Shown here piece by piece: positions 12,508 through 21,318 of a DNA stretch of 64,000 nucleotides. Both the position numbers and the translations under genes were made by a program. The stretch is from Candidatus Villigracilis adiacens (lineage in GTDB: Bacteria; Chloroflexota; Anaerolineae; Anaerolineales; Villigracilaceae). Where the stretch lies: the NCBI GenBank assembly GCA_016703605.1, contig JADJBU010000008.1, positions 91,819-155,818 of the forward strand. Direction: 5' to 3'. The notes under the pieces are model-generated. The model ran no database searches, had not been told where the DNA came from, and worked only from the letters and a program-made list of their open reading frames with translations. Numbering within the stretch: position 1 is the first letter of the stretch; each line of letters begins with the position of its first letter.

Positions 12508-12796
12508 GTACGACAAGGTTCACCTTGTCCTTCTGACGGCGCAAAGTGAACTTTGCGGTACGACAAGGTTCACCTTGTCCTTCTGACGGCGCAAAGTGAA
12601 CTTTGCGGTACGACAAGGTTCACCTTGTCCTTCTGACGGTGCAAAGTAAACTTTGCGGTACGACAAGGTTCACCTTTCGACGGGCAAAGTACTTCGGTAC
12701 GACAAGGTTCACCTTGTCCTTCTGACGGTGCAAAGTAAACTTTGCGGTACGACAAGGTTCACCTTGTCCTTCTGACGGCGCAAAGTAAACTTTGCG
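12508..12796. repeat. BIME-like tandem array of a 50-nt double-hairpin unit (5 full copies plus one 39-nt variant)
   Basis: Unit GTACGACAAGGTTCACCTTGTCCTTCTGACGG(C/T)GCAAAGT(G/A)AACTTTGCG at 12508, 12558, 12608, 12697 and 12747; shortened copy at 12658-12696. Confidence 0.9.
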
Positions 12797-12797
12797 G

Positions 12798-12832
12798 CAA
12801 AAAAATACCCCGATACATCGGGGTATTTTTTT
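12798..12832. terminator. Bidirectional rho-independent terminator
   Basis: AAAAAAATACCCCGAT-AC-ATCGGGGTATTTTTTT between convergent genes. Confidence 0.85.
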
Positions 12833-12848: not shown

Positions 12849-13424
12849 CTACCGGCTGGGGACGAAGCGCAGTCTGCGGACGACGAGGATGACGATCATG
12901 AAAGCCAGCGCCATGACGACGAGTCCGGGCGCGCCGACGTCATCCACGAAACCGGTATCGGGCAGCCCGGTGGTGGTGGGGACGATGGTCAATTGCGCGA
13001 TGGCAGCCTGGGTCAACGCTGCGCCGACAGTGGCGGTTGCGGCGACTTGGGTTGCATTAAGCGCCTGCGGCGTGCCGGCGCTGGGGTCGGGTGTGTTTGT
13101 GACGGTGGGGACGTTGACGACCGGCGTGTTTGTGGGCTGCAAGGTGGCGGTGGGAACCAGGGCTGCCGCCTGCGTGGCGGTCAGCGCTTCGTTGATGAAG
13201 TTGCTGTTGACGACCGCGGTCTCCGTCAGGGCGGCGTTTTGATCTTCGACCTGCGCGGTGGTGTTCTGGGTGTAGAGATAAACGCCAACGATACAGGCGA
13301 ATGCCAGCAGGATGATCCCGCCGAGAATGCCAGCCGCGATCAGGAAGGTGCGGTTATTATTTGATTCTTCCGGCAGTTGGCCGTCTTCCGGGGTATCGTC
13401 GAAATTGGATTCTTCAAAAGACAT
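12849..13424 (-). CDS. Thr/Ala-rich surface protein with an N-terminal TM helix and a C-terminal LPXTG sorting signal
   Basis: Acidic N-tail, TM (FLIAAGILGGIILLAFACIVGV), TAT/PTNT stalk, then LPDTG + hydrophobic helix + RRLR tail; AGGAG RBS before the ATG at 13424. Confidence 0.75.
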   Translation of the reverse strand: MSFEESNFDDTPEDGQLPEESNNNRTFLIAAGILGGIILLAFACIVGVYLYTQNTTAQVEDQNAALTETAVVNSNFINEALTATQAAALVPTATLQPTNTPVVNVPTVTNTPDPSAGTPQALNATQVAATATVGAALTQAAIAQLTIVPTTTGLPDTGFVDDVGAPGLVVMALAFMIVILVVRRLRFVPSR

Positions 13425-13464
13425 GAAGCACTCTCCTGATTTTTGGTTGAAGGTGATTGGGTAA

Positions 13465-14520
13465 TTATCCCACAACTTCCATGTTTACGAGCGGGACAAT
13501 GATGTTTTCGTTGTTCTCGAGTTTGACCTCCGCAGCCGGGGCGCGCAGCCCGCTGGGCAGCGCTGTCAGCCCGGGTTTGATGGAGACGATGGAGCCGATC
13601 ATGCCCATGGCGGGGGCGCGGCGCATCCGTACCTGCGAGCCGGGGACGAAGGTCTCGGTCTCATTCGGCATGGGCGGGTCGGAGGATGTGGGCAGGGGGA
13701 TGATGATCTCGGGGCGCGAGCCTGAATAGCGGTCGAAGGTTTCGGCGTTCAGCGCCACGTCGCGTTTGGCATTGGTGCTGAGCAATTTATAGGCGACCGA
13801 GTTCATCGGCAGCGATCCGATGCCGTCTGTCACAAGGATCGGATAACGCATTTCGCGCGCTTTTGCCAGCAGACCGGGCACGATGCTGGAGGCGACCAGA
13901 CCACGGGCGGGAAGTTCCGCGAGGGCTTGCAGGGTTTCGAGGTGTTCGATGCGCCCGCCCAGAATGACTGAGCCGCGCAGGCTGACATCCACCTGGTCGG
14001 GGATCAGGACCGTGGCGGGGGTTTGCATCAGGTTGACCATCAAACCGGAGTCGATGCGTCCGTTTCCCCATACGCATTGAACCAGGCCGCCGGAAGCCTG
14101 GATGACCACGCCGCGGTTGGGGATGACCTGAATCACCGTGCCGGGGAAGCCCGCGCGCAATTCGATTTTCGATTCGCCGACTTCCAGCAGGACCTGCCCG
14201 CCTCCCACTGCCACTACGCGCGCTTCGCGCGGCGCGCGGACCGAACGCGGGAATAAGCCTTTGCCGACTGCGATTTCACTGGATGCTGCCAGTTTATCGT
14301 CCACCTGGCATTTGATCAGGCGGTCTGCCGCGGCGGGGGTGACTCCCAGTGAACGCGCCACATCCAGCAGGACATGTTCGCGCGCCCAGCGGGTTTCAGC
14401 GACGACCTCACCGGCGGTTACCTTTTGCTGCGCGCGCGCGGCGACATTGCCCGAGATGGGCAGCAACCGCTCGCGGATGATGGTGGTTAATCCGATGATG
14501 TGGTGAACAGGAGCAAGCAT
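13465..14520 (-). CDS. Conserved hypothetical protein; barrel-sandwich-hybrid-like N-terminal half and KOW/SH3-like C-terminal domain
   Basis: KVTAGEVVAE and SVRAPREARVVAVGGGQVLLE (lipoyl-like strands); C-terminal GSQVRMRRAPAMGMIGSIVSI resembles a KOW motif; 3-nt gap to the upstream gene. Confidence 0.55.
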   Translation of the reverse strand: MLAPVHHIIGLTTIIRERLLPISGNVAARAQQKVTAGEVVAETRWAREHVLLDVARSLGVTPAAADRLIKCQVDDKLAASSEIAVGKGLFPRSVRAPREARVVAVGGGQVLLEVGESKIELRAGFPGTVIQVIPNRGVVIQASGGLVQCVWGNGRIDSGLMVNLMQTPATVLIPDQVDVSLRGSVILGGRIEHLETLQALAELPARGLVASSIVPGLLAKAREMRYPILVTDGIGSLPMNSVAYKLLSTNAKRDVALNAETFDRYSGSRPEIIIPLPTSSDPPMPNETETFVPGSQVRMRRAPAMGMIGSIVSIKPGLTALPSGLRAPAAEVKLENNENIIVPLVNMEVVG

Positions 14521-14523
14521 GAG

Positions 14524-16284
14524 TTATCCGCCTCCCAGCGTCCAGTCCCATTTTTTGATGAGTTCGCGCCGGCGCACCGGGTCGGACGGCATATCGAGCG
14601 GACGCCCACGCCCGTCGAAGACGACTCCCAGGGCGCCGCCGTTGATCTGCATATTTTTCACGCCTCGCCCGGGACCGAAGCCAATATCCACGCCGCGGGC
14701 GGGCTGGATGCTCATTTTTCCGGATTCGCCGCTGCCCAGGGGCAGGACTTCGAGGAAGCCGTACTTCAGATCAACATTTGCTTCTGCGCCGGTATCGTAA
14801 ACGACTTTTGCCTTCAGGATGGTCGCGCCATATTTTGCCGTGACCACCGGGCAGACGACTGTGCCAATGCTCAGGAATGCGCCGGACTCGAGCACATGCA
14901 CCGGCAGGATGTTGTTGACCGAACCTGCCGCGCCGAGGAGGGGCATAAGGTTGTTCTGGTCGAGGATGACGGTGGAAATGCCCACGGGTTGAACCGAGTC
15001 CAGCAGCAGGAGCAGGCTCTGACCGGGGCGCGAAGCGTCGCTTAGGGCGGCGCCCCCGGCGATGATGGGGTCGAAGAGCGGGGTGAGAGTCGGCTTGATG
15101 AAGGCGGCATCCCTCGGAAAATCTTTTCGGGCTTCGCGCACGGCAAGGAACAATGATTGTTTTGCGACCGATTGCGCGATGACCAGGTCTTCCCTGGTGG
15201 CGGGGATGGTTGCGGGGTAAAGCGCCTTTTGATGAAGGAAATCGATGATGGCTGTGGGCGGGATGTCGAGCGTGGACCAGCGCAGGATATCGTCGATGGA
15301 CGTGTAGTTGAGCAGACCGGTCAGGTTCTCGCCCTGCCCAAATTGGGGATACACCTTCAGGACGGACTTGTCCTTGAATCCGGCGGCAATGACCGTGGAC
15401 GATGCGCCCAGGTCGACGCTCAAGAGACCTTTTGGCGAGCCGTAGACGTTGGAAAGAAACCGAACCATGCGCCCCGTGGCGAAGGCGGTCGGCAGGGTGT
15501 GACCTCCCGCCCACAGGTCGAGGATATCGAGCCCTTTGAGCTGCTTTTTGCGGACCTTGATGAACATGTGCGCCAGTTCGCTCTCGGCAGGCGGGATGTT
15601 TTCCTTATCGAGCGAGGGGCGGATGTTGGAACTGAAATGCAGGTGCGAGGCGAGCGAGCCAACCAATGCCTTGACTTCGTCCACAAGTTGGTCGTTGCCC
15701 GCGAAGAGGACGGCGGGGCGTTTTTCTTCGGGCAGAAGGTAGCTGGCAAGCCCGATCGGTTCGAGAAGTTTTTGAACGGAACGCGATGCGCCTCCGTTCG
15801 TGCCCCCGGCGATGATGACCATCTCGGGGCGCTGGCGCAGGATGGTGTCTATCTGTTGTTCGGGCTTGCGCTGCCCTCCGAGGCTGACGGAGTCGATTAT
15901 GCGCGTATAGGTGGATTCAGTCAGGCGGCGGGCGCTTTCGAGCGAGACGTCTTTGAGCAAGCCGACGACGAGCGTGCGCACAGCAGGACCCGCGGATACT
16001 GTGACCACCAGCGCGTCCACGCCGGAGCCGTCGGGCTGGCTTGGCAGGATCAGGTTGCGCGAGACGTCTAGCAGGTTCCTTTTTAGAATGCCCTGCAACG
16101 CCTGAATGGCATTGCGCGCGCCTTCTGAAACATCCCTGAGAGGCGATTCAGCCGTGCTGGGCGCGATTCCCGAAGCCACAAAGCGATATTCGCCTTCGAT
16201 GACGTCGAAAAGCACGGCGCGGGTGTTCGCGGCTCCGATATCGATGGCGAGCATGGAATTGGCGGTGACGATGGAAGTAGGCAT
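14524..16284 (-). CDS. GlmL/MutL(glutamate mutase L)-like ASKHA (actin-fold) ATPase
   Basis: LAIDIGAANTR (phosphate 1), IIAGGTNGG, LSVDLGASST (phosphate 2), IIAGGAAL (adenosine), GGALGVVFDGRGRP. Confidence 0.75.
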   Translation of the reverse strand: MPTSIVTANSMLAIDIGAANTRAVLFDVIEGEYRFVASGIAPSTAESPLRDVSEGARNAIQALQGILKRNLLDVSRNLILPSQPDGSGVDALVVTVSAGPAVRTLVVGLLKDVSLESARRLTESTYTRIIDSVSLGGQRKPEQQIDTILRQRPEMVIIAGGTNGGASRSVQKLLEPIGLASYLLPEEKRPAVLFAGNDQLVDEVKALVGSLASHLHFSSNIRPSLDKENIPPAESELAHMFIKVRKKQLKGLDILDLWAGGHTLPTAFATGRMVRFLSNVYGSPKGLLSVDLGASSTVIAAGFKDKSVLKVYPQFGQGENLTGLLNYTSIDDILRWSTLDIPPTAIIDFLHQKALYPATIPATREDLVIAQSVAKQSLFLAVREARKDFPRDAAFIKPTLTPLFDPIIAGGAALSDASRPGQSLLLLLDSVQPVGISTVILDQNNLMPLLGAAGSVNNILPVHVLESGAFLSIGTVVCPVVTAKYGATILKAKVVYDTGAEANVDLKYGFLEVLPLGSGESGKMSIQPARGVDIGFGPGRGVKNMQINGGALGVVFDGRGRPLDMPSDPVRRRELIKKWDWTLGGG

Positions 16285-16290
16285 GAGACC

Positions 16291-16992
16291 TTAGGATCGT
16301 CCAAATATAGACATGAGGAAGCCGACAATCGAAGCGATGCGTTCGATCAGGGCGGTCAGCGCCGCGGCGTATACGCCTGCAAAGACGGCGCCCAATGCGC
16401 TGCCGATGAAGACCCGCCCCACCCAGGCTAGCAGGTTGATGACGCCCGCCCGCTTTGCCGACCCATCGGGTTTCTGGCGCGCTCCGAAGTGGAAGTATGC
16501 CAGGGAAGTGACCGTTCCCAAAAGGATCACGCCGCCGCTGAGCGCGATCTCGAGCATTTGGTCTGCCGGTTTGGAGATCGCGCCGTCGAAGAAATTAACG
16601 GTGGCTTCGATCTGCGGGATGATGGTCCCGGTCAATGCGCCGACGATGGTCACCGCCGCGCCCACGCCGACCAGGTATGCCATGGTGATGCGCGCCGTCC
16701 CTGCCAGGCGCGGCGAGATCTTCATCAAAATAAAGGCAAAACCCAGCCACGGCGCAGCCAGCAGGATCATGCGGCTGTAATCACCGGTTTGGATGATGTT
16801 CCATGTTGGCAGGAAGAGTTTCGGCATCAGCACCTGCCAGATCACGATCGTCGCGGCATACCCCGAAGCGACGCCGACAAACAGGTAGACCGCGACCTTG
16901 AAGAGCGGGTTGTCGCCGATCAGGTAACTGAGAATCATCACCGTGAACAATAAACTGAGCGCGCCGGTGACGAGGTCGAGGGAGAAGATCAT
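16291..16992 (-). CDS. Conserved multi-pass membrane protein of unknown function
   Basis: About 6 TM helices; LSYLIGDNPLFKVAVYLFVGVASGY; likely ATG at 16992, 1 nt after the upstream stop. Confidence 0.7.
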   Translation of the reverse strand: MIFSLDLVTGALSLLFTVMILSYLIGDNPLFKVAVYLFVGVASGYAATIVIWQVLMPKLFLPTWNIIQTGDYSRMILLAAPWLGFAFILMKISPRLAGTARITMAYLVGVGAAVTIVGALTGTIIPQIEATVNFFDGAISKPADQMLEIALSGGVILLGTVTSLAYFHFGARQKPDGSAKRAGVINLLAWVGRVFIGSALGAVFAGVYAAALTALIERIASIVGFLMSIFGRS

Positions 16993-16993
16993 G

Positions 16994-19561
16994 TTATTTC
17001 CCGCCCTTCGCTGACGGTTGTTTGCGCATTCCGAGACCCCAATTGATGAAGCCTCCGCCGAGGGTAAAGACCAGCGCAAGCGCCATGCCGATGCTGTAGG
17101 CGTCCCAATATCCGCGCGAGGTGCCGGGACGGCCGCTGTTGTACTGCCGCTCGACGATCGCGCCGCCGTACAAGCCCGATACCACGCCCGCCACCTGTCC
17201 CGAGTCGTAATACGGCTGGATCAGCGGCGCGGCTTGCGCGCTGGCAACCGCCACAACCGGAACGACCCCGCGCGCGGATTGAGTCTGTTCGATCCAATCG
17301 CGGGCGGCATCGGCGTCATCGGTGACGAGGATGATCAGGGCAAACTGATTGAGGGATTTCACGTCTTGCAGCATGGGGAGGGTCCACGCGGGCTGACCGG
17401 TAATGTCAACGGGCATTGCCGCCGCGGGGTTCTGCGCAAAGGAGCGGATGCCGACCTGCCCACCGGCAAGGTAGCCCAGGTTCAGGTAGGTGACTCCGTT
17501 TTGCACATGGAACGCCAGGGGTCCGTTCATGAAGCGTTCGGTCAGGATCGAACCGGCTTCATTGCTGGCAACAAAGGTCAAACGCGGATGTTTGAACAGG
17601 ATCAGGTTATCAAACAGAGGCGCGGCGGCGGCTTCCATTTCACCGGCGCGCGAAGCGTCGTAATCCATTGCCACCAAAACAGGGGCGTTTTCCGGGATGG
17701 CTTGCGCCACCGAGACGGCAAAGGCAATCTCATTGGGAACGCCGATCGGCACCGAGAGGAACTGGCTTCCCATAAAGGAAGTGACAAGGATGACGCCGAT
17801 CAGAATCGCCGAGATCGCCCAGCGCAGTCCGCGGGACGCCCCGAGCGTCTTTTCGGTCGACAAAACCTCAGGCGCGGTTTCGGCTGCAAGAATCTGCTCG
17901 AAGATCCCGGCATGTTTCAATTGCTCATCGTCCACACTGAGTTTATTCGAATAGGCTTTGGGCTTGCTGGTCGGCGCAAACCCCGCGCCGGCAGGCAATA
18001 CGCCCTGCAAACCCGCCAATGCCCCGCGTTGTTCGAGGGTCTGATCGCTCATCAACGAAGCGGAACCGGGGATGGTTTGTTCCATGGGGCGCATGGCTTC
18101 GAGCCAGCCGGGCAGGGAACCGGAGGCAAGCGCTTCCTGGCTGACAGGTTCGGCTGCCGGTATTGACGGCGTCTCGACGGCGTTGGAAAGCCAGTCGGGC
18201 ATTTCGGTGAACAGATCATCGGAGCCGGAGGTTGCATCATCAGTGAAAGCCGCCGCCGTGAGGGGGGGAGCCGCTTCGATGCCCGGCGCAGGCTGGGCGG
18301 GCTGCTCGAAGACCATCGGTTCCGGCGCGGCAGATTTCAACCAGTCGGGCATGTCGATCAGACCGTCGTCGACTGGCGGCGCATTTATCTCCTGCGCGGG
18401 CTGCTGCGTTTTCGCCTCGTCCGCAGACAACCATGCAGGCGTGTCGGCGCTGCTGTTGTCTTTTAACCAGATCGGCGTGGAATCAGATTTTTTGGATTCT
18501 TCCGGGGCAAGCCAGGACGGCAGTTCCCCATCGGACGCGAACGGTTCAGACTCAGCCGGGGCTGGTTCGGCGAACGGAGCCGCGTCCTGGCTGGGGGGGC
18601 CACCCAGGTCTTGCAACCAGTCCGGCGAATCCACGGTATAGGCGGGCTGCCCGGATTCTTCCTCCTGCGGACCGGTGTTCATGTCGGCTTGCAATTTGCT
18701 CAACCAATCGGGCGTGTCGGAACCGGCGGCAGGCGCAAACGATTCCTGTGAACCCGGTGATGCGGCAGCGTCTGCCTGTAATTGACTTAACCAATCCGGG
18801 GCTTGGGATTCAGCGGAGGAAACGAACGGGGTCGCCGATTCAGCCGTCGGCGCGGAGGGAGCCGCAGCCGGGGGTTGGCTGAACCAGTCCAGCGTGGCAT
18901 CAGGCGCCGGTTCGCTTTTCATCTCTCCGGCATCGGCTGCCATTTGCTTCAACCAATCCGGCGTATCGTCTGAAGCGGATGGGGTGAAGGGCGGCTCGAG
19001 TTCGGAGAGGGGTTGGAATGAATTTTGGAACGGGCTTGAGGCGTTGTCCCAGTCGGATGTCAATTCGTCTTTTTTCTCGGCGCCCCCGGCAGACGGTTGC
19101 AAACCTGCCAGCCAGTCTGGAGTGTCTTCCTCCTGCTGGAAATCGTCCTTGCGCCCGGTTTCCACCCAGCGCGCTCCGGTCGGTTCGGCGGGTTCTTCGG
19201 TCCTGGCTTTTGGTTTCGAGACCCCGGTAATGCTGGCAAGCCAGTCTGGCACTTCTTCGTCGTCGTCAGCAGCGGTTTGAGATTGCAGACCCGCCAAAAA
19301 GTCTGTTGGCGACGCGGCTGGCTGGTTTTGCTCGGGTGGGTTGAGGCGTTCCTCCATCCCCGATTGCTTGGCGGTCTCGCGGGCATCCCGCAGCCATTCC
19401 GGCAGGATGGGTTCCAGTTCGCCGGTATCTTTTCTTATCGGAGCCTGCCCCGGCTGGAAGGATTCGCCGGAAAGCGGGGTCTGGCAGTTCTGGCAGATTT
19501 TCTGGTCGGGCGGGTTGATCGTTCCGCACAGGGGGCATTTCACCGTGTTTGCCATTTTCAT
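16994..19561 (-). CDS. Zinc-ribbon / acidic PxWL-repeat membrane protein
   Basis: CPLC..CQNC ribbon; 13 PxWL motifs in an acidic low-complexity region; TM near residue 580; alpha/beta domain (LVAMDYD, YLNLGYLAGG); C-terminal TM. Confidence 0.8.
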   Translation of the reverse strand: MKMANTVKCPLCGTINPPDQKICQNCQTPLSGESFQPGQAPIRKDTGELEPILPEWLRDARETAKQSGMEERLNPPEQNQPAASPTDFLAGLQSQTAADDDEEVPDWLASITGVSKPKARTEEPAEPTGARWVETGRKDDFQQEEDTPDWLAGLQPSAGGAEKKDELTSDWDNASSPFQNSFQPLSELEPPFTPSASDDTPDWLKQMAADAGEMKSEPAPDATLDWFSQPPAAAPSAPTAESATPFVSSAESQAPDWLSQLQADAAASPGSQESFAPAAGSDTPDWLSKLQADMNTGPQEEESGQPAYTVDSPDWLQDLGGPPSQDAAPFAEPAPAESEPFASDGELPSWLAPEESKKSDSTPIWLKDNSSADTPAWLSADEAKTQQPAQEINAPPVDDGLIDMPDWLKSAAPEPMVFEQPAQPAPGIEAAPPLTAAAFTDDATSGSDDLFTEMPDWLSNAVETPSIPAAEPVSQEALASGSLPGWLEAMRPMEQTIPGSASLMSDQTLEQRGALAGLQGVLPAGAGFAPTSKPKAYSNKLSVDDEQLKHAGIFEQILAAETAPEVLSTEKTLGASRGLRWAISAILIGVILVTSFMGSQFLSVPIGVPNEIAFAVSVAQAIPENAPVLVAMDYDASRAGEMEAAAAPLFDNLILFKHPRLTFVASNEAGSILTERFMNGPLAFHVQNGVTYLNLGYLAGGQVGIRSFAQNPAAAMPVDITGQPAWTLPMLQDVKSLNQFALIILVTDDADAARDWIEQTQSARGVVPVVAVASAQAAPLIQPYYDSGQVAGVVSGLYGGAIVERQYNSGRPGTSRGYWDAYSIGMALALVFTLGGGFINWGLGMRKQPSAKGGK

Positions 19562-20187
19562 TTGCCCCCGTACGGGCGGTCCATGCCGAACAATACGCGC
19601 AGACCGGTCAGCAGTGCGCCAAGCCCCACGCCGATCAAAATTCCGCGCGCCCCGCCCAACGCCCAGACCTGCGAAACCCAGGGGCGGATCAGGGTGCCAA
19701 ACAGGGGCAGGTCGCCAAAGGGCAGGGTGATGGAGCCGAGGAAGATCAATGCGGCGGTGGCGATGAATGCCACGCCCATCAGGTCGGCGCGGCGGCGCAG
19801 CAGTCTTACCGCGGCATAGAGCAGGGAGACGGCGAGCAGCCCCATCAACGAGGCTTCGACCGGGATGATGATCCCTTCGAGCAGGATGGATTGCATCAGG
19901 ATGTGCTGCGGCTTGAGGAAGAGTCCGAGGGTGAAGGCGGCGATCAAGCCCATCACAAGCAGGGCGCTGTAAATGCCGTCTTTTTTACGGCGGCGGATCT
20001 TTTCAGTGTGAACGCTGAACAGGTTGAAGACGCCGATCAATGCCGCGGCAGCCGCAAGAATGACCGCCCAGTCGAGCAGCACGGCTTGCAGCCCCGCCGC
20101 ATTGGGGAACAATTCCTGCGGAAGGAAATAGCCGAGCAGGACCAGGACACCGAAGGCGATGGCTATTACGGCGGTGATGACGCGCAT
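19558..20187 (-). CDS. Conserved multi-pass membrane protein of unknown function
   Basis: About 6 TM helices; C-terminal GGARGILIGVGLGALLTGLRVLFGMDRPY; overlaps both neighbours. Confidence 0.7.
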   Translation of the reverse strand: MRVITAVIAIAFGVLVLLGYFLPQELFPNAAGLQAVLLDWAVILAAAAALIGVFNLFSVHTEKIRRRKKDGIYSALLVMGLIAAFTLGLFLKPQHILMQSILLEGIIIPVEASLMGLLAVSLLYAAVRLLRRRADLMGVAFIATAALIFLGSITLPFGDLPLFGTLIRPWVSQVWALGGARGILIGVGLGALLTGLRVLFGMDRPYGGK

Positions 20188-20918
20188 TAGAAGACCCCCA
20201 TGAATTTCGCGGCAGACCCTGCCAGCAAGCCGAGGATGATCAGCCAGCGGAAGAGGTCCTGCGCGGACAAGCTTGCTTCATGCGCCGGGTCTGAGTTCAG
20301 GTAGGCGCCGGCGGCAAAGAGTTCTTCACCGATCAAAGGTTCCTGCGCACCGGCGAAAAGAACGGACTGCCCCGCAATATCTTCTGTGGCGCCGATCAGG
20401 GTCGTGGCGGCGCGTTCCGATGCTTCGGCGAGCAGACCCGCTTCGGGACCGAAATGCCCGAGCAGGATGTTTGTGGAGATGTTTTCGTTTTGGGGGATGG
20501 GCATGGTTCCTGCCGCGTAACTGAACGGGGTGAGCCCGGTGACGCGCCCCATCGTGTGGACGTAGGCATCCTCGACGCCTGCCGCCTGATATCCGGCTTG
20601 AAGCGTGTCCTGTGTGAGCAGCCCAAGGGTTGGGTCGCCGGCGGTGGCAACGGAGGGCATGTCGCTGACCGAGGTGCGTTCGGCGACGTTTCGCAGTAAT
20701 GCCAGCCCGGCGAGCGCCGAGCCGCCGCGTCCGTCGAACAGGCCGCCGTGACCGAGCGAGATGTGCAGGCGTTTGCCGTCTTCGATGCTCAAACCGACGG
20801 CGCGCGCCAGTGTGGTGAAGGCGGGAATCTGTCTCAGCGATCCGGGGCTGCGGCGTTTCCATAATGTGATGACACCCAGCAGGAAGGCGGCAAGTAAAAG
20901 CACGGTAAGCGGAATCAT
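20187..20918 (-). CDS. DUF6754-like membrane-anchored protein
   Basis: N-terminal TM, LRQIPAFTTLARAVGLSIEDGKRLHISLG, IGEELFAAGAYL, C-terminal TM; family name from recall only. Confidence 0.6.
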   Translation of the reverse strand: MIPLTVLLLAAFLLGVITLWKRRSPGSLRQIPAFTTLARAVGLSIEDGKRLHISLGHGGLFDGRGGSALAGLALLRNVAERTSVSDMPSVATAGDPTLGLLTQDTLQAGYQAAGVEDAYVHTMGRVTGLTPFSYAAGTMPIPQNENISTNILLGHFGPEAGLLAEASERAATTLIGATEDIAGQSVLFAGAQEPLIGEELFAAGAYLNSDPAHEASLSAQDLFRWLIILGLLAGSAAKFMGVF

Positions 20919-21160
20919 GAAGCCGTCCCTTCCCGGTTCAAATATGCCGCAAATGCCCGCGTTTCAGATTCATCCTCGAGCATTGCGGCGAGCGCGTCGA
21001 GATGCTCGTTTTTAATGAACGCGCCGCCAAAATAAATCGCCTGCGCGCCGAGCAAGGCAAGCGGGCTGCCTGCTTCGAGGAACGAGGCGATCAAATCATG
21101 AAGTTGATAACGGCGCAGGGAGTCAGCCCAGCGCTGCCAGAATTCGTGTGTTGAATTCAT
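20915..21160 (-). CDS. Small hypothetical protein, first gene of the operon
   Basis: 81 aa; ATGA overlap with the next gene; extended -10 TGcTATACT at 21171-21179 on the minus strand. Confidence 0.6.
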   Translation of the reverse strand: MNSTHEFWQRWADSLRRYQLHDLIASFLEAGSPLALLGAQAIYFGGAFIKNEHLDALAAMLEDESETRAFAAYLNREGTAS

Positions 21161-21318
21161 AGTTTTTGCCAGTATAGCATAATTTTAATGTTGACCCGCG
21201 TCGCGCGCGCCGGAAAGTATTGCAATTTTGTAATAGACCCTGAATTTTACGCGCGACGCCCGCAGATCGCATGATCGCAGGCGTCTTTCAGGCAATCTTT
21301 TGCGCTTTCGGCGCGTCT

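Follow-up and report, generated by a model that had tools for sequence, protein, structure and literature searches.

A conserved eight-gene operon of Chloroflexota encoding an actin/Hsp70-fold protein and a candidate envelope platform

Several bacterial systems hold a protein of the actin fold at the inner face of the membrane by means of short cytoplasmic peptides, among them the PilM-PilN pair of the type IV pilus alignment complex and FtsA-FtsZ/FtsN. The C-terminal peptide of FtsZ binds FtsA, ZipA and SepF. In Myxococcus, the Agl-Glt focal-adhesion machinery includes GltJ, a bitopic membrane protein with a zinc-finger domain at its cytosolic N-terminus; this domain and cytosolic binding motifs bring switch proteins and the MreB cytoskeleton to a complex that spans the envelope (PMC11135422). 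Here we describe an operon of eight genes, numbered g1 to g8 in order of transcription, on the minus strand (12849–21160) of a 64,000-nucleotide (nt) stretch of the Candidatus Villigracilis adiacens genome, hereafter the window. The operon matches no described system: neither a family-level match nor a paper was found for a set of this composition, in keeping with the initial annotation of the window. Literature searches on DUF6754, PF13941, the PxWL/PDWL motif, GlmL together with ASKHA, and the Haur_ and OSCT_ locus tags returned nothing relevant. Seven of the eight proteins fall in families of no known function, and the eighth is misnamed "glutamate mutase L". Tentatively, and at somewhat less than an even chance, we propose that the products form a nucleotide-switched scaffold on an envelope-spanning platform.

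Operon structure and conservation

The genes and signals are laid out as follows (window coordinates; aa, amino acids).

21171–21179 (read 21179–21171), minus strand: extended −10 promoter TGCTATACT, read directly, its motif conserved in relatives
20915–21160, minus strand: g1, open reading frame (ORF), 81 aa
20187–20918, minus strand: g2, ORF, 243 aa, DUF6754
19558–20187, minus strand: g3, ORF, 209 aa, six transmembrane helices
16994–19561, minus strand: g4, ORF, 855 aa, zinc ribbon/PxWL/transmembrane scaffold
16291–16992, minus strand: g5, ORF, 233 aa counted from ATG, six to seven transmembrane helices
14524–16284, minus strand: g6, ORF, 586 aa, MutL/GlmL-type ASKHA protein
13465–14520, minus strand: g7, ORF, 351 aa, barrel-sandwich, alpha/beta and KOW domains
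12849–13424, minus strand: g8, ORF, 191 aa counted from ATG, LPXTG protein
12798–12832, minus strand: intrinsic terminator made of an A-tract, a 16-bp hairpin and U7

Consecutive genes overlap by 4, 1 and 4 nt and are then separated by 1, 6, 3 and 40 nt, exactly the junctions claimed in the initial annotation for eight coupled minus-strand genes. Shine-Dalgarno-like purine-rich runs stand ahead of most starts, and g1 has none. The promoter TGCTATACT lies 10 nt from the ATG of g1, and the same ATGCTATACT precedes the g1 start at 7–10 nt in at least 29 of 41 Anaerolineales loci. Since the extended −10 is kept ahead of g1 in relatives, it constitutes a phylogenetic footprint, i.e. a conserved promoter; its position implies a near-leaderless mRNA, from which g1 would undergo leaderless translation. 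No −35 hexamer was found upstream of g1, which is why a scan with the generic sigma-70 consensus did not flag this promoter. At the other end of the operon the terminator folds at −22.2 kcal/mol (z = −6.1), and none of 200 shuffles folds as well. Both signals had been placed at these positions from the sequence of the window, and the conservation of the one and the hairpin statistics of the other uphold them. Judged by gene spacing, the conserved promoter and the terminator, the eight genes are a single transcription unit.

The flanks of the operon hold features of their own. In the region upstream of g1 (window 21161–21200; related loci L047–L130), AAAATTATGCTATACT is kept 7–10 nt ahead of the start codon across Anaerolineales. 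In two other families, macro-domain-like ORFs, judged by eye from VNAANNHLWMGGGVAGAI, lie upstream of the g1-like gene (L033:4169–4597 and L036:2910–3422). Downstream of the terminator, between it and a convergent phosphoglucomutase-like gene, a 50-nt unit is repeated six times in tandem at positions 12508–12797 (90% matches); as short palindromes occur within the units, the array is like a repetitive extragenic palindromic/bacterial interspersed mosaic element (REP/BIME).

A scan of genome contigs with the g6 pattern yielded at least 576 confirmed relatives, of which the best 80, all from Anaerolineales, are used for the locus counts below. All eight genes occur in identical order and on the same strand in 79 of these 80 loci, the missing genes coinciding with contig ends; chance comes nowhere near explaining such agreement. 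DUF6754 is present as a single copy in 55 of 201 Chloroflexota species genomes. A PF13941 match accompanies it in 53 of these 55, at a distance of at most 10 kb on one contig in 37, and in many of the remaining genomes the pair is split at contig ends, with breakage of assemblies at the repetitive g4 gene as the likely cause. In the source genome PF13941 and DUF6754 are each represented by one gene. Roughly one in four of the Chloroflexota species sampled thus carries the system, in a single and strongly conserved copy. In tblastn searches the order g2-g3-g4-g5-g6(-g7) was found in at least nine families, and the core g1–g7 recurs in Herpetosiphon (H. aurantiacus and others), Oscillochloris trichoides, Brevefilum fermentans, Limnocylindria and other Chloroflexota families, so that H. 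aurantiacus, O. trichoides and B. fermentans are available as cultured carriers. Searches seeded with the Limnocylindria g6 and with a divergent g7 profile gave only Chloroflexota-type proteins among the matches listed. The initial annotation had made its idea of a joint machine depend on gene neighbourhood across genomes, and on this point the genes do co-occur. One record titled "Syntrophothermus sp." (L089, JBLNAU010000069.1) holds the whole Anaerolineales-type cluster, with g6 56% identical, and is likely a mislabelled or mis-binned genome or contig.

The system is modular across Chloroflexota lineages. In Ktedonobacteria (Thermogemmatispora) and in family f28, g6-g7 are present without g1–g5; in families f16 and f23, g1–g4 are on one contig and g5–g6 on another; in Herpetosiphon and Oscillochloris, g7 is outside the cluster but present elsewhere in the genome. 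The membrane-spanning machine suggested from the window alone therefore needs qualification: the synteny of the membrane genes with g6 speaks for it, but g6-g7 stand without membrane genes in Ktedonobacteria, and g7 is unlinked in Herpetosiphon and Oscillochloris. A role in filament division, raised at the same time, is not favoured, as planktonic Limnocylindria also carry the core.

The g6-g7 pair and the PxWL motifs

g6 belongs to the actin/Hsp70-fold superfamily represented by PF13941 (MutL), with a match of 8e-53 over aa 11–464 (180.2 bits against a cut-off of 27). Beyond this match it has an extra C-terminal domain of ~120 aa with the invariant motif VIDARGRP...W. Its scores against the NCBIfam GlmL-type models are far below their cut-offs (86.7 bits versus 475 for NF040745, 71 versus 204 for TIGR01319 and 51 versus 600 for a further model). 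Pfam and NCBIfam gave no FtsA family match for g6 and no PilM, PilN or PilO match anywhere in the operon. Among solved structures, profile comparison places PilM closest to g6 (E = 2e-4), with a local match around the phosphate-2 motif only.

The name given to g6 homologs in the source databases, "glutamate mutase L", and the PF13941 match itself would make g6 an accessory (reactivase) protein of a coenzyme-B12 mutase. The shortfall against the GlmL equivalog and TIGR01319 and the extra 120-aa domain are at odds with such a role. PF06368 (glutamate mutase E subunit) has no match in the source genome, and at the loci where flanking genes were read none of those next to the cluster encodes a mutase, so the association with B12 mutase subunits that the initial annotation named, along with a metabolic phenotype, as grounds against its idea was not seen. 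True GlmL/Or-4 genes coexist in relatives as separate, shorter paralogs of ~440–480 aa, adjacent to an aminomutase, that match PF13941 at 1e-136 to 1e-170. We consider the B12 reading refuted for practical purposes, its remaining probability being negligible, and the database name is, on these comparisons, misleading for g6. At one locus (L142:17931–21035) a cluster-type MutL of 563 aa lies 8 kb from a 443-aa MutL beside B12 aminomutase and alanine racemase-type genes, and the contexts of the two paralogs are clearly different.

The glycine motifs of g6 are near-invariant across 96 orthologs. The phosphate-1 aspartate (D15) is D in 76 of them, E in 12 and N in 8, and the phosphate-2 aspartate (D291) is D in 73 and N in 20, such that at least one of the two is replaced in 34 of 96. 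The g6 of the window has D15 and D291, but N163 at the usual D of the GGxDGG motif. D442, D557, R559, P562 and W579 are invariant and comprise the sole fully invariant charged or aromatic residues, beyond the Pfam domain. The loss of an aspartate in 34 of 96 orthologs, together with the invariant C-terminal residues, suits a switch or scaffold that binds nucleotide in the way of PilM or FtsA better than an obligate hydrolytic motor; hydrolysis is possible. Of the "actin-like ATPase" proposed from the window, then, the fold holds and the word ATPase may say too much.

The putative partner of g6 is g7, which is predicted to be soluble. Its AlphaFold2 model (predicted local distance difference test, pLDDT, 92.5) consists of a barrel-sandwich hybrid, an alpha/beta (swivel-like) domain and a KOW/SH3-like domain, and it has a conserved QGVWGNG loop. 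AlphaFold2 and Foldseek agree with the barrel-sandwich/KOW-like character noticed earlier, the alpha/beta domain lying between the two. The Foldseek matches are at the level of domains only, with NusG, Spt5 and eS4 KOW domains for the C-terminal part, whereas the remainder matches AF_0055 (target TM-score 0.60) and RnfC; over the whole chain no TM-score reaches 0.2, except for 0.25 with the small AF_0055 protein. The g7 of the window has no Pfam family match. Its Oscillochloris ortholog passes the cut-off of Pfam RnfC_N, a barrel-sandwich hybrid, and some g7 homologs carry precomputed PF13375 or PF00467. The family comprises 3487 clusters at 50% identity (E ≤ 1e-3), or 1112 at E ≤ 1e-30. A match of g7 to the CW_7 repeats of Cpl-7 lysozyme (3e-7) came from a WGNG motif summed over three repeats; this homology was rejected because the model shows the segment as a beta-hairpin loop, with no helical repeat there.

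In Oscillochloris (L147:4822–7140), in a second genome of the Oscillochloris family (G153, L148:3039–7137) and in Herpetosiphon (L149:5959–8360), the gene after the unlinked g7 encodes a receiver-domain protein, joined in Herpetosiphon by a hybrid histidine kinase; the Oscillochloris receiver-domain protein has a weak MP1/Roadblock-like match (1.4e-3). The adjacency of unlinked g7 to receiver-domain proteins in these two lineages speaks for a switch.

In our proposal g6 and g7 would be gathered by g4, for which, as for g2, g3, g5 and g8, topology was predicted from hydropathy and the positive-inside rule. The arm of g4 is 574 aa long, acidic and predicted to be cytoplasmic. It carries a zinc ribbon (aa 6–30, nt 19472–19546), all matches to which fall under the Pfam cut-offs, and 13 PxWL motifs in an acidic disordered region (aa 52–490). 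The C-terminal module (aa 575–855, nt 16997–17839) comprises a transmembrane helix, a domain of 227 aa predicted to lie outside, a second transmembrane helix and a basic tail. AlphaFold2 models it with a pLDDT of 93.3 as a two-helix membrane hairpin bearing a Rossmann-like alpha/beta domain, and the fold matches of this model are generic only (Rossmann/RCK; MthK RCK, E ≥ 4e-3).

Across 96 g4 orthologs there are 742 instances of the consensus [DE][DE]-(L/V/T/M)-P-D-W-L-(R/S/K), at 0–44 copies per protein. With its succession of acidic, hydrophobic, P, x, aromatic, L and basic positions the motif resembles the C-terminal peptide of FtsZ, and FtsZ of the source genome ends in DLDVPSFLRNRR. PxWL motifs are not confined to g4. 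Ktedonobacteria and f28 have a soluble zinc-ribbon protein with five to seven LPxW[LM][RK] copies directly upstream of g6-g7, and in three of the four loci read such soluble proteins end in KRSFLDVIRSWFPH-type or basic-aromatic tails, which resemble the membrane-targeting (amphipathic) helices of FtsA in those genomes, e.g. SLDSVKSWMKRLLP. In Herpetosiphonaceae (L038 and L039) the motifs also occur in the C-terminal tail of g6 itself, and the g6 tails of these two loci and of the Oscillochloris family end in basic-aromatic peptides of the KRRGWFGKK type. In Limnocylindria, by contrast, g4 is a core of 290 aa only, with no PxWL protein nearby. The soluble PxWL proteins, the motifs in g6 tails and the core-only g4 of Limnocylindria tie the PxWL arm to g6-g7 and not to the membrane module; because Limnocylindria g4 is core only, the arm appears as an addition that the core can do without.

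Either g6 or g7, the latter through its KOW/SH3-like domain, could serve as receptor of the motifs. The idea that g6 is the sole receptor was dropped, since g7 too exists in all PxWL lineages, albeit unlinked in Herpetosiphon and Oscillochloris. Peptide binding to g6 or g7 is a directly testable hypothesis that the motif provides.

A motif so like the FtsZ tail could instead bind FtsA or SepF as a mimic of the FtsZ peptide, bypassing g6/g7 and tying the platform to division or septal wall synthesis. Besides the likeness of PxWL to the FtsZ tail of the source genome and of the soluble PxWL tails to the FtsA helix, this divisome-linked reading can call on O. trichoides, in which the cluster lies directly downstream of ftsA-ftsZ (L035:1119–3851). 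That adjacency is seen in L035 only, not even in L037 of the same family, and in the source genome ftsA-ftsZ are on another contig than the cluster. PxWL proteins, moreover, always adjoin g6-g7, and a second PxWL protein of the genome has no division context. We give a divisome link only a slim chance. The ftsZ ORF of L035 has a 3' end that reads as an odd Arg-rich tail and may reflect an assembly frameshift.

The second PxWL protein of the source genome is encoded outside the window (contig C22:216748–219831, minus strand). It is 1027 aa long, has TPR repeats at both ends, and contains ten [DE]xPxW[LM] motifs and two PDFL variants that are even closer to the FtsZ tail. The genes around it, for thymidine phosphorylase, Ndk, response regulators and histidine kinases, offer no hint of its function.

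Membrane proteins, surface protein and proposed complex

The smallest membrane candidate, g1, has a conserved, moderately hydrophobic segment (LEA..PL..LGAQ..Y) and no Pfam or NCBIfam family match. Its orthologs are found in 64 of 80 Anaerolineales loci, the absences lying at contig ends, and small g1-like ORFs precede g2 in most other families inspected. g2 is a member of PF20539 (DUF6754; 5.5e-29, 101.5 bits against a gathering score of 27), and both this assignment and the description of g4 as an 855-aa protein with a zinc ribbon, PxWL motifs and transmembrane helices agree with the initial annotation. The predicted layout of g2 is a transmembrane helix, a domain of ~200 aa and a second transmembrane helix; the domain is probably cytoplasmic because KRR follows the first helix.

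Of two proteins described earlier as having six transmembrane helices, g3 retains that number, with both termini predicted inside by the positive-inside rule, and g5 has six to seven. In g3, R181 and R197 are invariant, the C-terminal DRPY is conserved, and E112 is among the conserved charged or polar residues. g5 has the conserved motifs SY..GDNP.FR, PQ and ER, and conserved D27 and R218. No consistent Pfam family emerged among 41–42 orthologs of each protein scanned singly, and alignment profiles of g3 and g5 found no relative among PDB sequences. A g3 match to YLATT (E = 0.061) was dismissed as low-complexity or chance. Profile comparison gave no sign of internal duplication, of g2 with the C-terminal part of g4 or of g3 with g5 (hhalign probability <4%), and that of g6 with g7, g2 or the C-terminal part of g4 gave no relation.

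Two polytopic proteins with invariant or near-invariant charged residues invite the chief competing explanation, an ATP-driven transporter or translocase in which g3, g5 and the transmembrane helices of g2 and g4 would form a channel and g6-g7 its motor, an actin/Hsp70-fold ATPase taking the place of an ABC or AAA+ engine and moving an envelope precursor, lipid or polymer. The tight translational coupling of the genes, as in transporter operons, is compatible with this, and so are the nucleotide-binding glycine motifs of g6, all kept, and the retention of both aspartates in 62 of 96 orthologs. A third of the orthologs have, however, lost a canonical aspartate, g6-g7 occur in Ktedonobacteria without the membrane module, and the long multivalent docking arm is without counterpart in transporters. 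Nor did g3 or g5 show similarity to an ABC or other transporter family or to a solved transporter in Pfam, NCBIfam or the PDB, and no ABC, enzyme or substrate-binding family was matched by the operon proteins in Pfam and NCBIfam, just as nothing of the kind had been recognised in the operon at the outset. A transporter is, on balance, unlikely; should g6 power transport after all, it would represent a new class of membrane energiser.

The last gene, g8, is predicted to encode an acidic cytoplasmic N-terminal tail of 27 aa, a transmembrane helix, a Thr/Ala/Pro-rich stalk of ~116 aa, LPDTG, a second transmembrane helix and RRLR. It thus has the C-terminal signature of a sortase substrate (LPXTG, hydrophobic segment, basic tail), and scores 16.3 against Pfam Gram_pos_anchor, under the cut-off of 20. 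The motif [LM]Px[TS]G is found in 74 of 79 Anaerolineales g8 orthologs and is accompanied by the basic tail in 73 of them. Proteins of the same plan stand at the cluster end in L032 (f7), L039 (Herpetosiphon), L046 (f3) and L141 (f23), with VPDTG, LPDTS, LPQTG and MPQTG as sorting motifs, which brings g8-type proteins to five families. The source genome has four sortase-domain matches. On these features g8 is likely a sortase substrate and, if its N-terminal helix stays uncleaved, possibly a membrane-to-wall tether. Two of the sortase-domain matches (C26:14260–14661 and C26:68623–69036; L133 and L134) are inside very long open frames, of 2998 and 2022 aa. A match of g8 to NCBIfam GltJ (19 bits against 450) was dismissed as low-complexity or chance.

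The cluster might also serve g8 itself, exporting, glycosylating or anchoring its own LPXTG protein, in analogy to accessory Sec loci with their serine-rich LPXTG glycoprotein or to an exosortase-type polytopic subunit that processes a C-terminal signal. Proteins with [LVM]P[DQ]T[GS], a transmembrane helix and a basic tail do end the cluster in five families, and C-terminal scans of the source genome found no LPXTG-type signal other than that of g8. Genes inserted between g5 and g6 point the same way: f23 has a PMT_2-type GT-C glycosyltransferase, a mannosyltransferase type, inside the cluster (L141:7813–11624), and Thr/Pro-rich stalks are typical targets of O-glycosylation; f16 (L140:5440–11680) has a GT-C-type polytopic protein with ~11 transmembrane helices and no Pfam match, an SMR/EamA-like small membrane protein (a flippase candidate), a GT2 and an NAD-dependent epimerase. 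These GT-C, GT2 and flippase-like insertions hint at extracytoplasmic glycosylation and would suit a transporter equally. Dedicated biogenesis of g8 is nonetheless decidedly improbable in our view, given that Brevefilum-type loci, Limnocylindria and Oscillochloris have no g8-like gene beside the cluster, that the cluster contains no Sec or sortase homolog (Pfam, NCBIfam), and that g8, with its own N-terminal transmembrane/signal segment and the genomic sortase-domain matches, would need no special pathway. The L140 gene set as such resembles a polyprenyl-phosphate-sugar glycosylation cassette.

The nucleotide-switched scaffold that we propose joins observed gene structure, conservation, modularity, folds and motif statistics to inferred protein contacts, topology, sortase processing and output. 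g1, g2, g3, the C-terminal part of g4 and g5 would make up the membrane platform, with the polytopic g3 and g5 as its body, the DUF6754 domain of g2 on its cytoplasmic face and the Rossmann-like domain of g4 as the only large domain on its outer face. The acidic [DE]-hydrophobic-P-x-W-L-[KR] motifs of the g4 arm, where present, would through their multivalency bring g6 and g7 to the membrane, as would probably the g2 domain in all lineages. Once there, the pair would serve as a switch or scaffold that depends on nucleotide, comparable to PilM-PilN, FtsA-FtsZ/FtsN or GltJ, and not as a transport motor. In Anaerolineales and several other families, cleavage at the LPXTG-type signal would attach g8 to the wall with its N-terminal helix still in the membrane, and g8 so attached would staple the complex to the cell wall. 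As a whole, the complex would probably organise or regulate assembly at the cell envelope.

Several observations weigh against this scaffold. The likeness of PxWL to the FtsZ tail concerns a short motif of ~7 residues in which W always stands instead of F. PxWL is missing from the g4 of Limnocylindria and of families f16, f23 and f29, and for that reason cannot be the sole docking route. Both nucleotide-site aspartates are kept in 62 of 96 g6 orthologs, that of the window included, and ATP hydrolysis may matter. The conserved charged or polar residues of g3 (E112, R181/R197) and g5 (D27, R218) fit a transporter equally well, and no g8 lies beside the cluster in Brevefilum-type loci (L142–L146), in Limnocylindria and in some other families.

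A more specific form of the scaffold proposal would make it a coupling of cytoskeleton to envelope, with the g6/g7 switch gathered by up to 44 PxWL motifs on the platform scaffold, covalently stapled to the wall through the LPXTG protein and placed under two-component control in some lineages. We regard this version as doubtful, though worth stating: if true, uncharacterised families alone would here reproduce the logic of focal adhesions or of the divisome. How Chloroflexota build, divide and organise their unusual envelope is little understood, and a conserved actin-fold envelope complex would offer a concrete entry point.

Comparison with known systems

The proteins nearest to g6 by family are GlmL/MutL, accessory to glutamate/methylaspartate mutase, and the Or-4 protein of ornithine degradation (reference models Pfam PF13941 and NCBIfam NF040745, TIGR01319 and NF040744), with which it shares an ASKHA-fold domain of ~450 aa. 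Unlike these, g6 has 586 aa, of which the additional C-terminal domain is invariant; it never occurs unpaired with g7, and the membrane genes usually accompany it.

The folds at the two ends of g7, namely the N-terminal barrel-sandwich of RnfC/NqrA and the KOW domain of NusG/Spt5, recall those proteins at the domain level only, and g7, unlike them, is without Fe-S, NADH or ribosome/RNA-polymerase context. g8 shares with the LPXTG sortase substrates of monoderm bacteria its LPDTG, hydrophobic helix and RRLR, in a genome that encodes sortase domains. It differs from typical substrates in an N-terminus made of an acidic tail and a transmembrane helix, with no typical signal peptide, and in the lack of a sortase gene in the cluster.

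GltJ and the ZitP-type zinc-finger membrane proteins have a plan to which that of g4 can be likened. Unlike GltJ, g4 is without a GYF or TonB-C domain, and the cluster has no Agl, Glt or MglA genes; the sole sequence link to GltJ concerns g8 and not g4, at 19 bits versus a cut-off of 450 in a low-complexity part. To PilM-PilN and FtsA the operon is related in likeness by the PilM profile match of g6, by the similarity of PxWL to the FtsZ peptide and by the FtsA-like tails of the soluble PxWL proteins. Unlike those systems it has no pilus or divisome genes in the cluster, and peptide binding by g6/g7 is a prediction. Although family-level membership tests place the operon in none of them, the systems to which it comes closest in its predicted working are PilM-PilN, FtsA-FtsZ/FtsN and GltJ.

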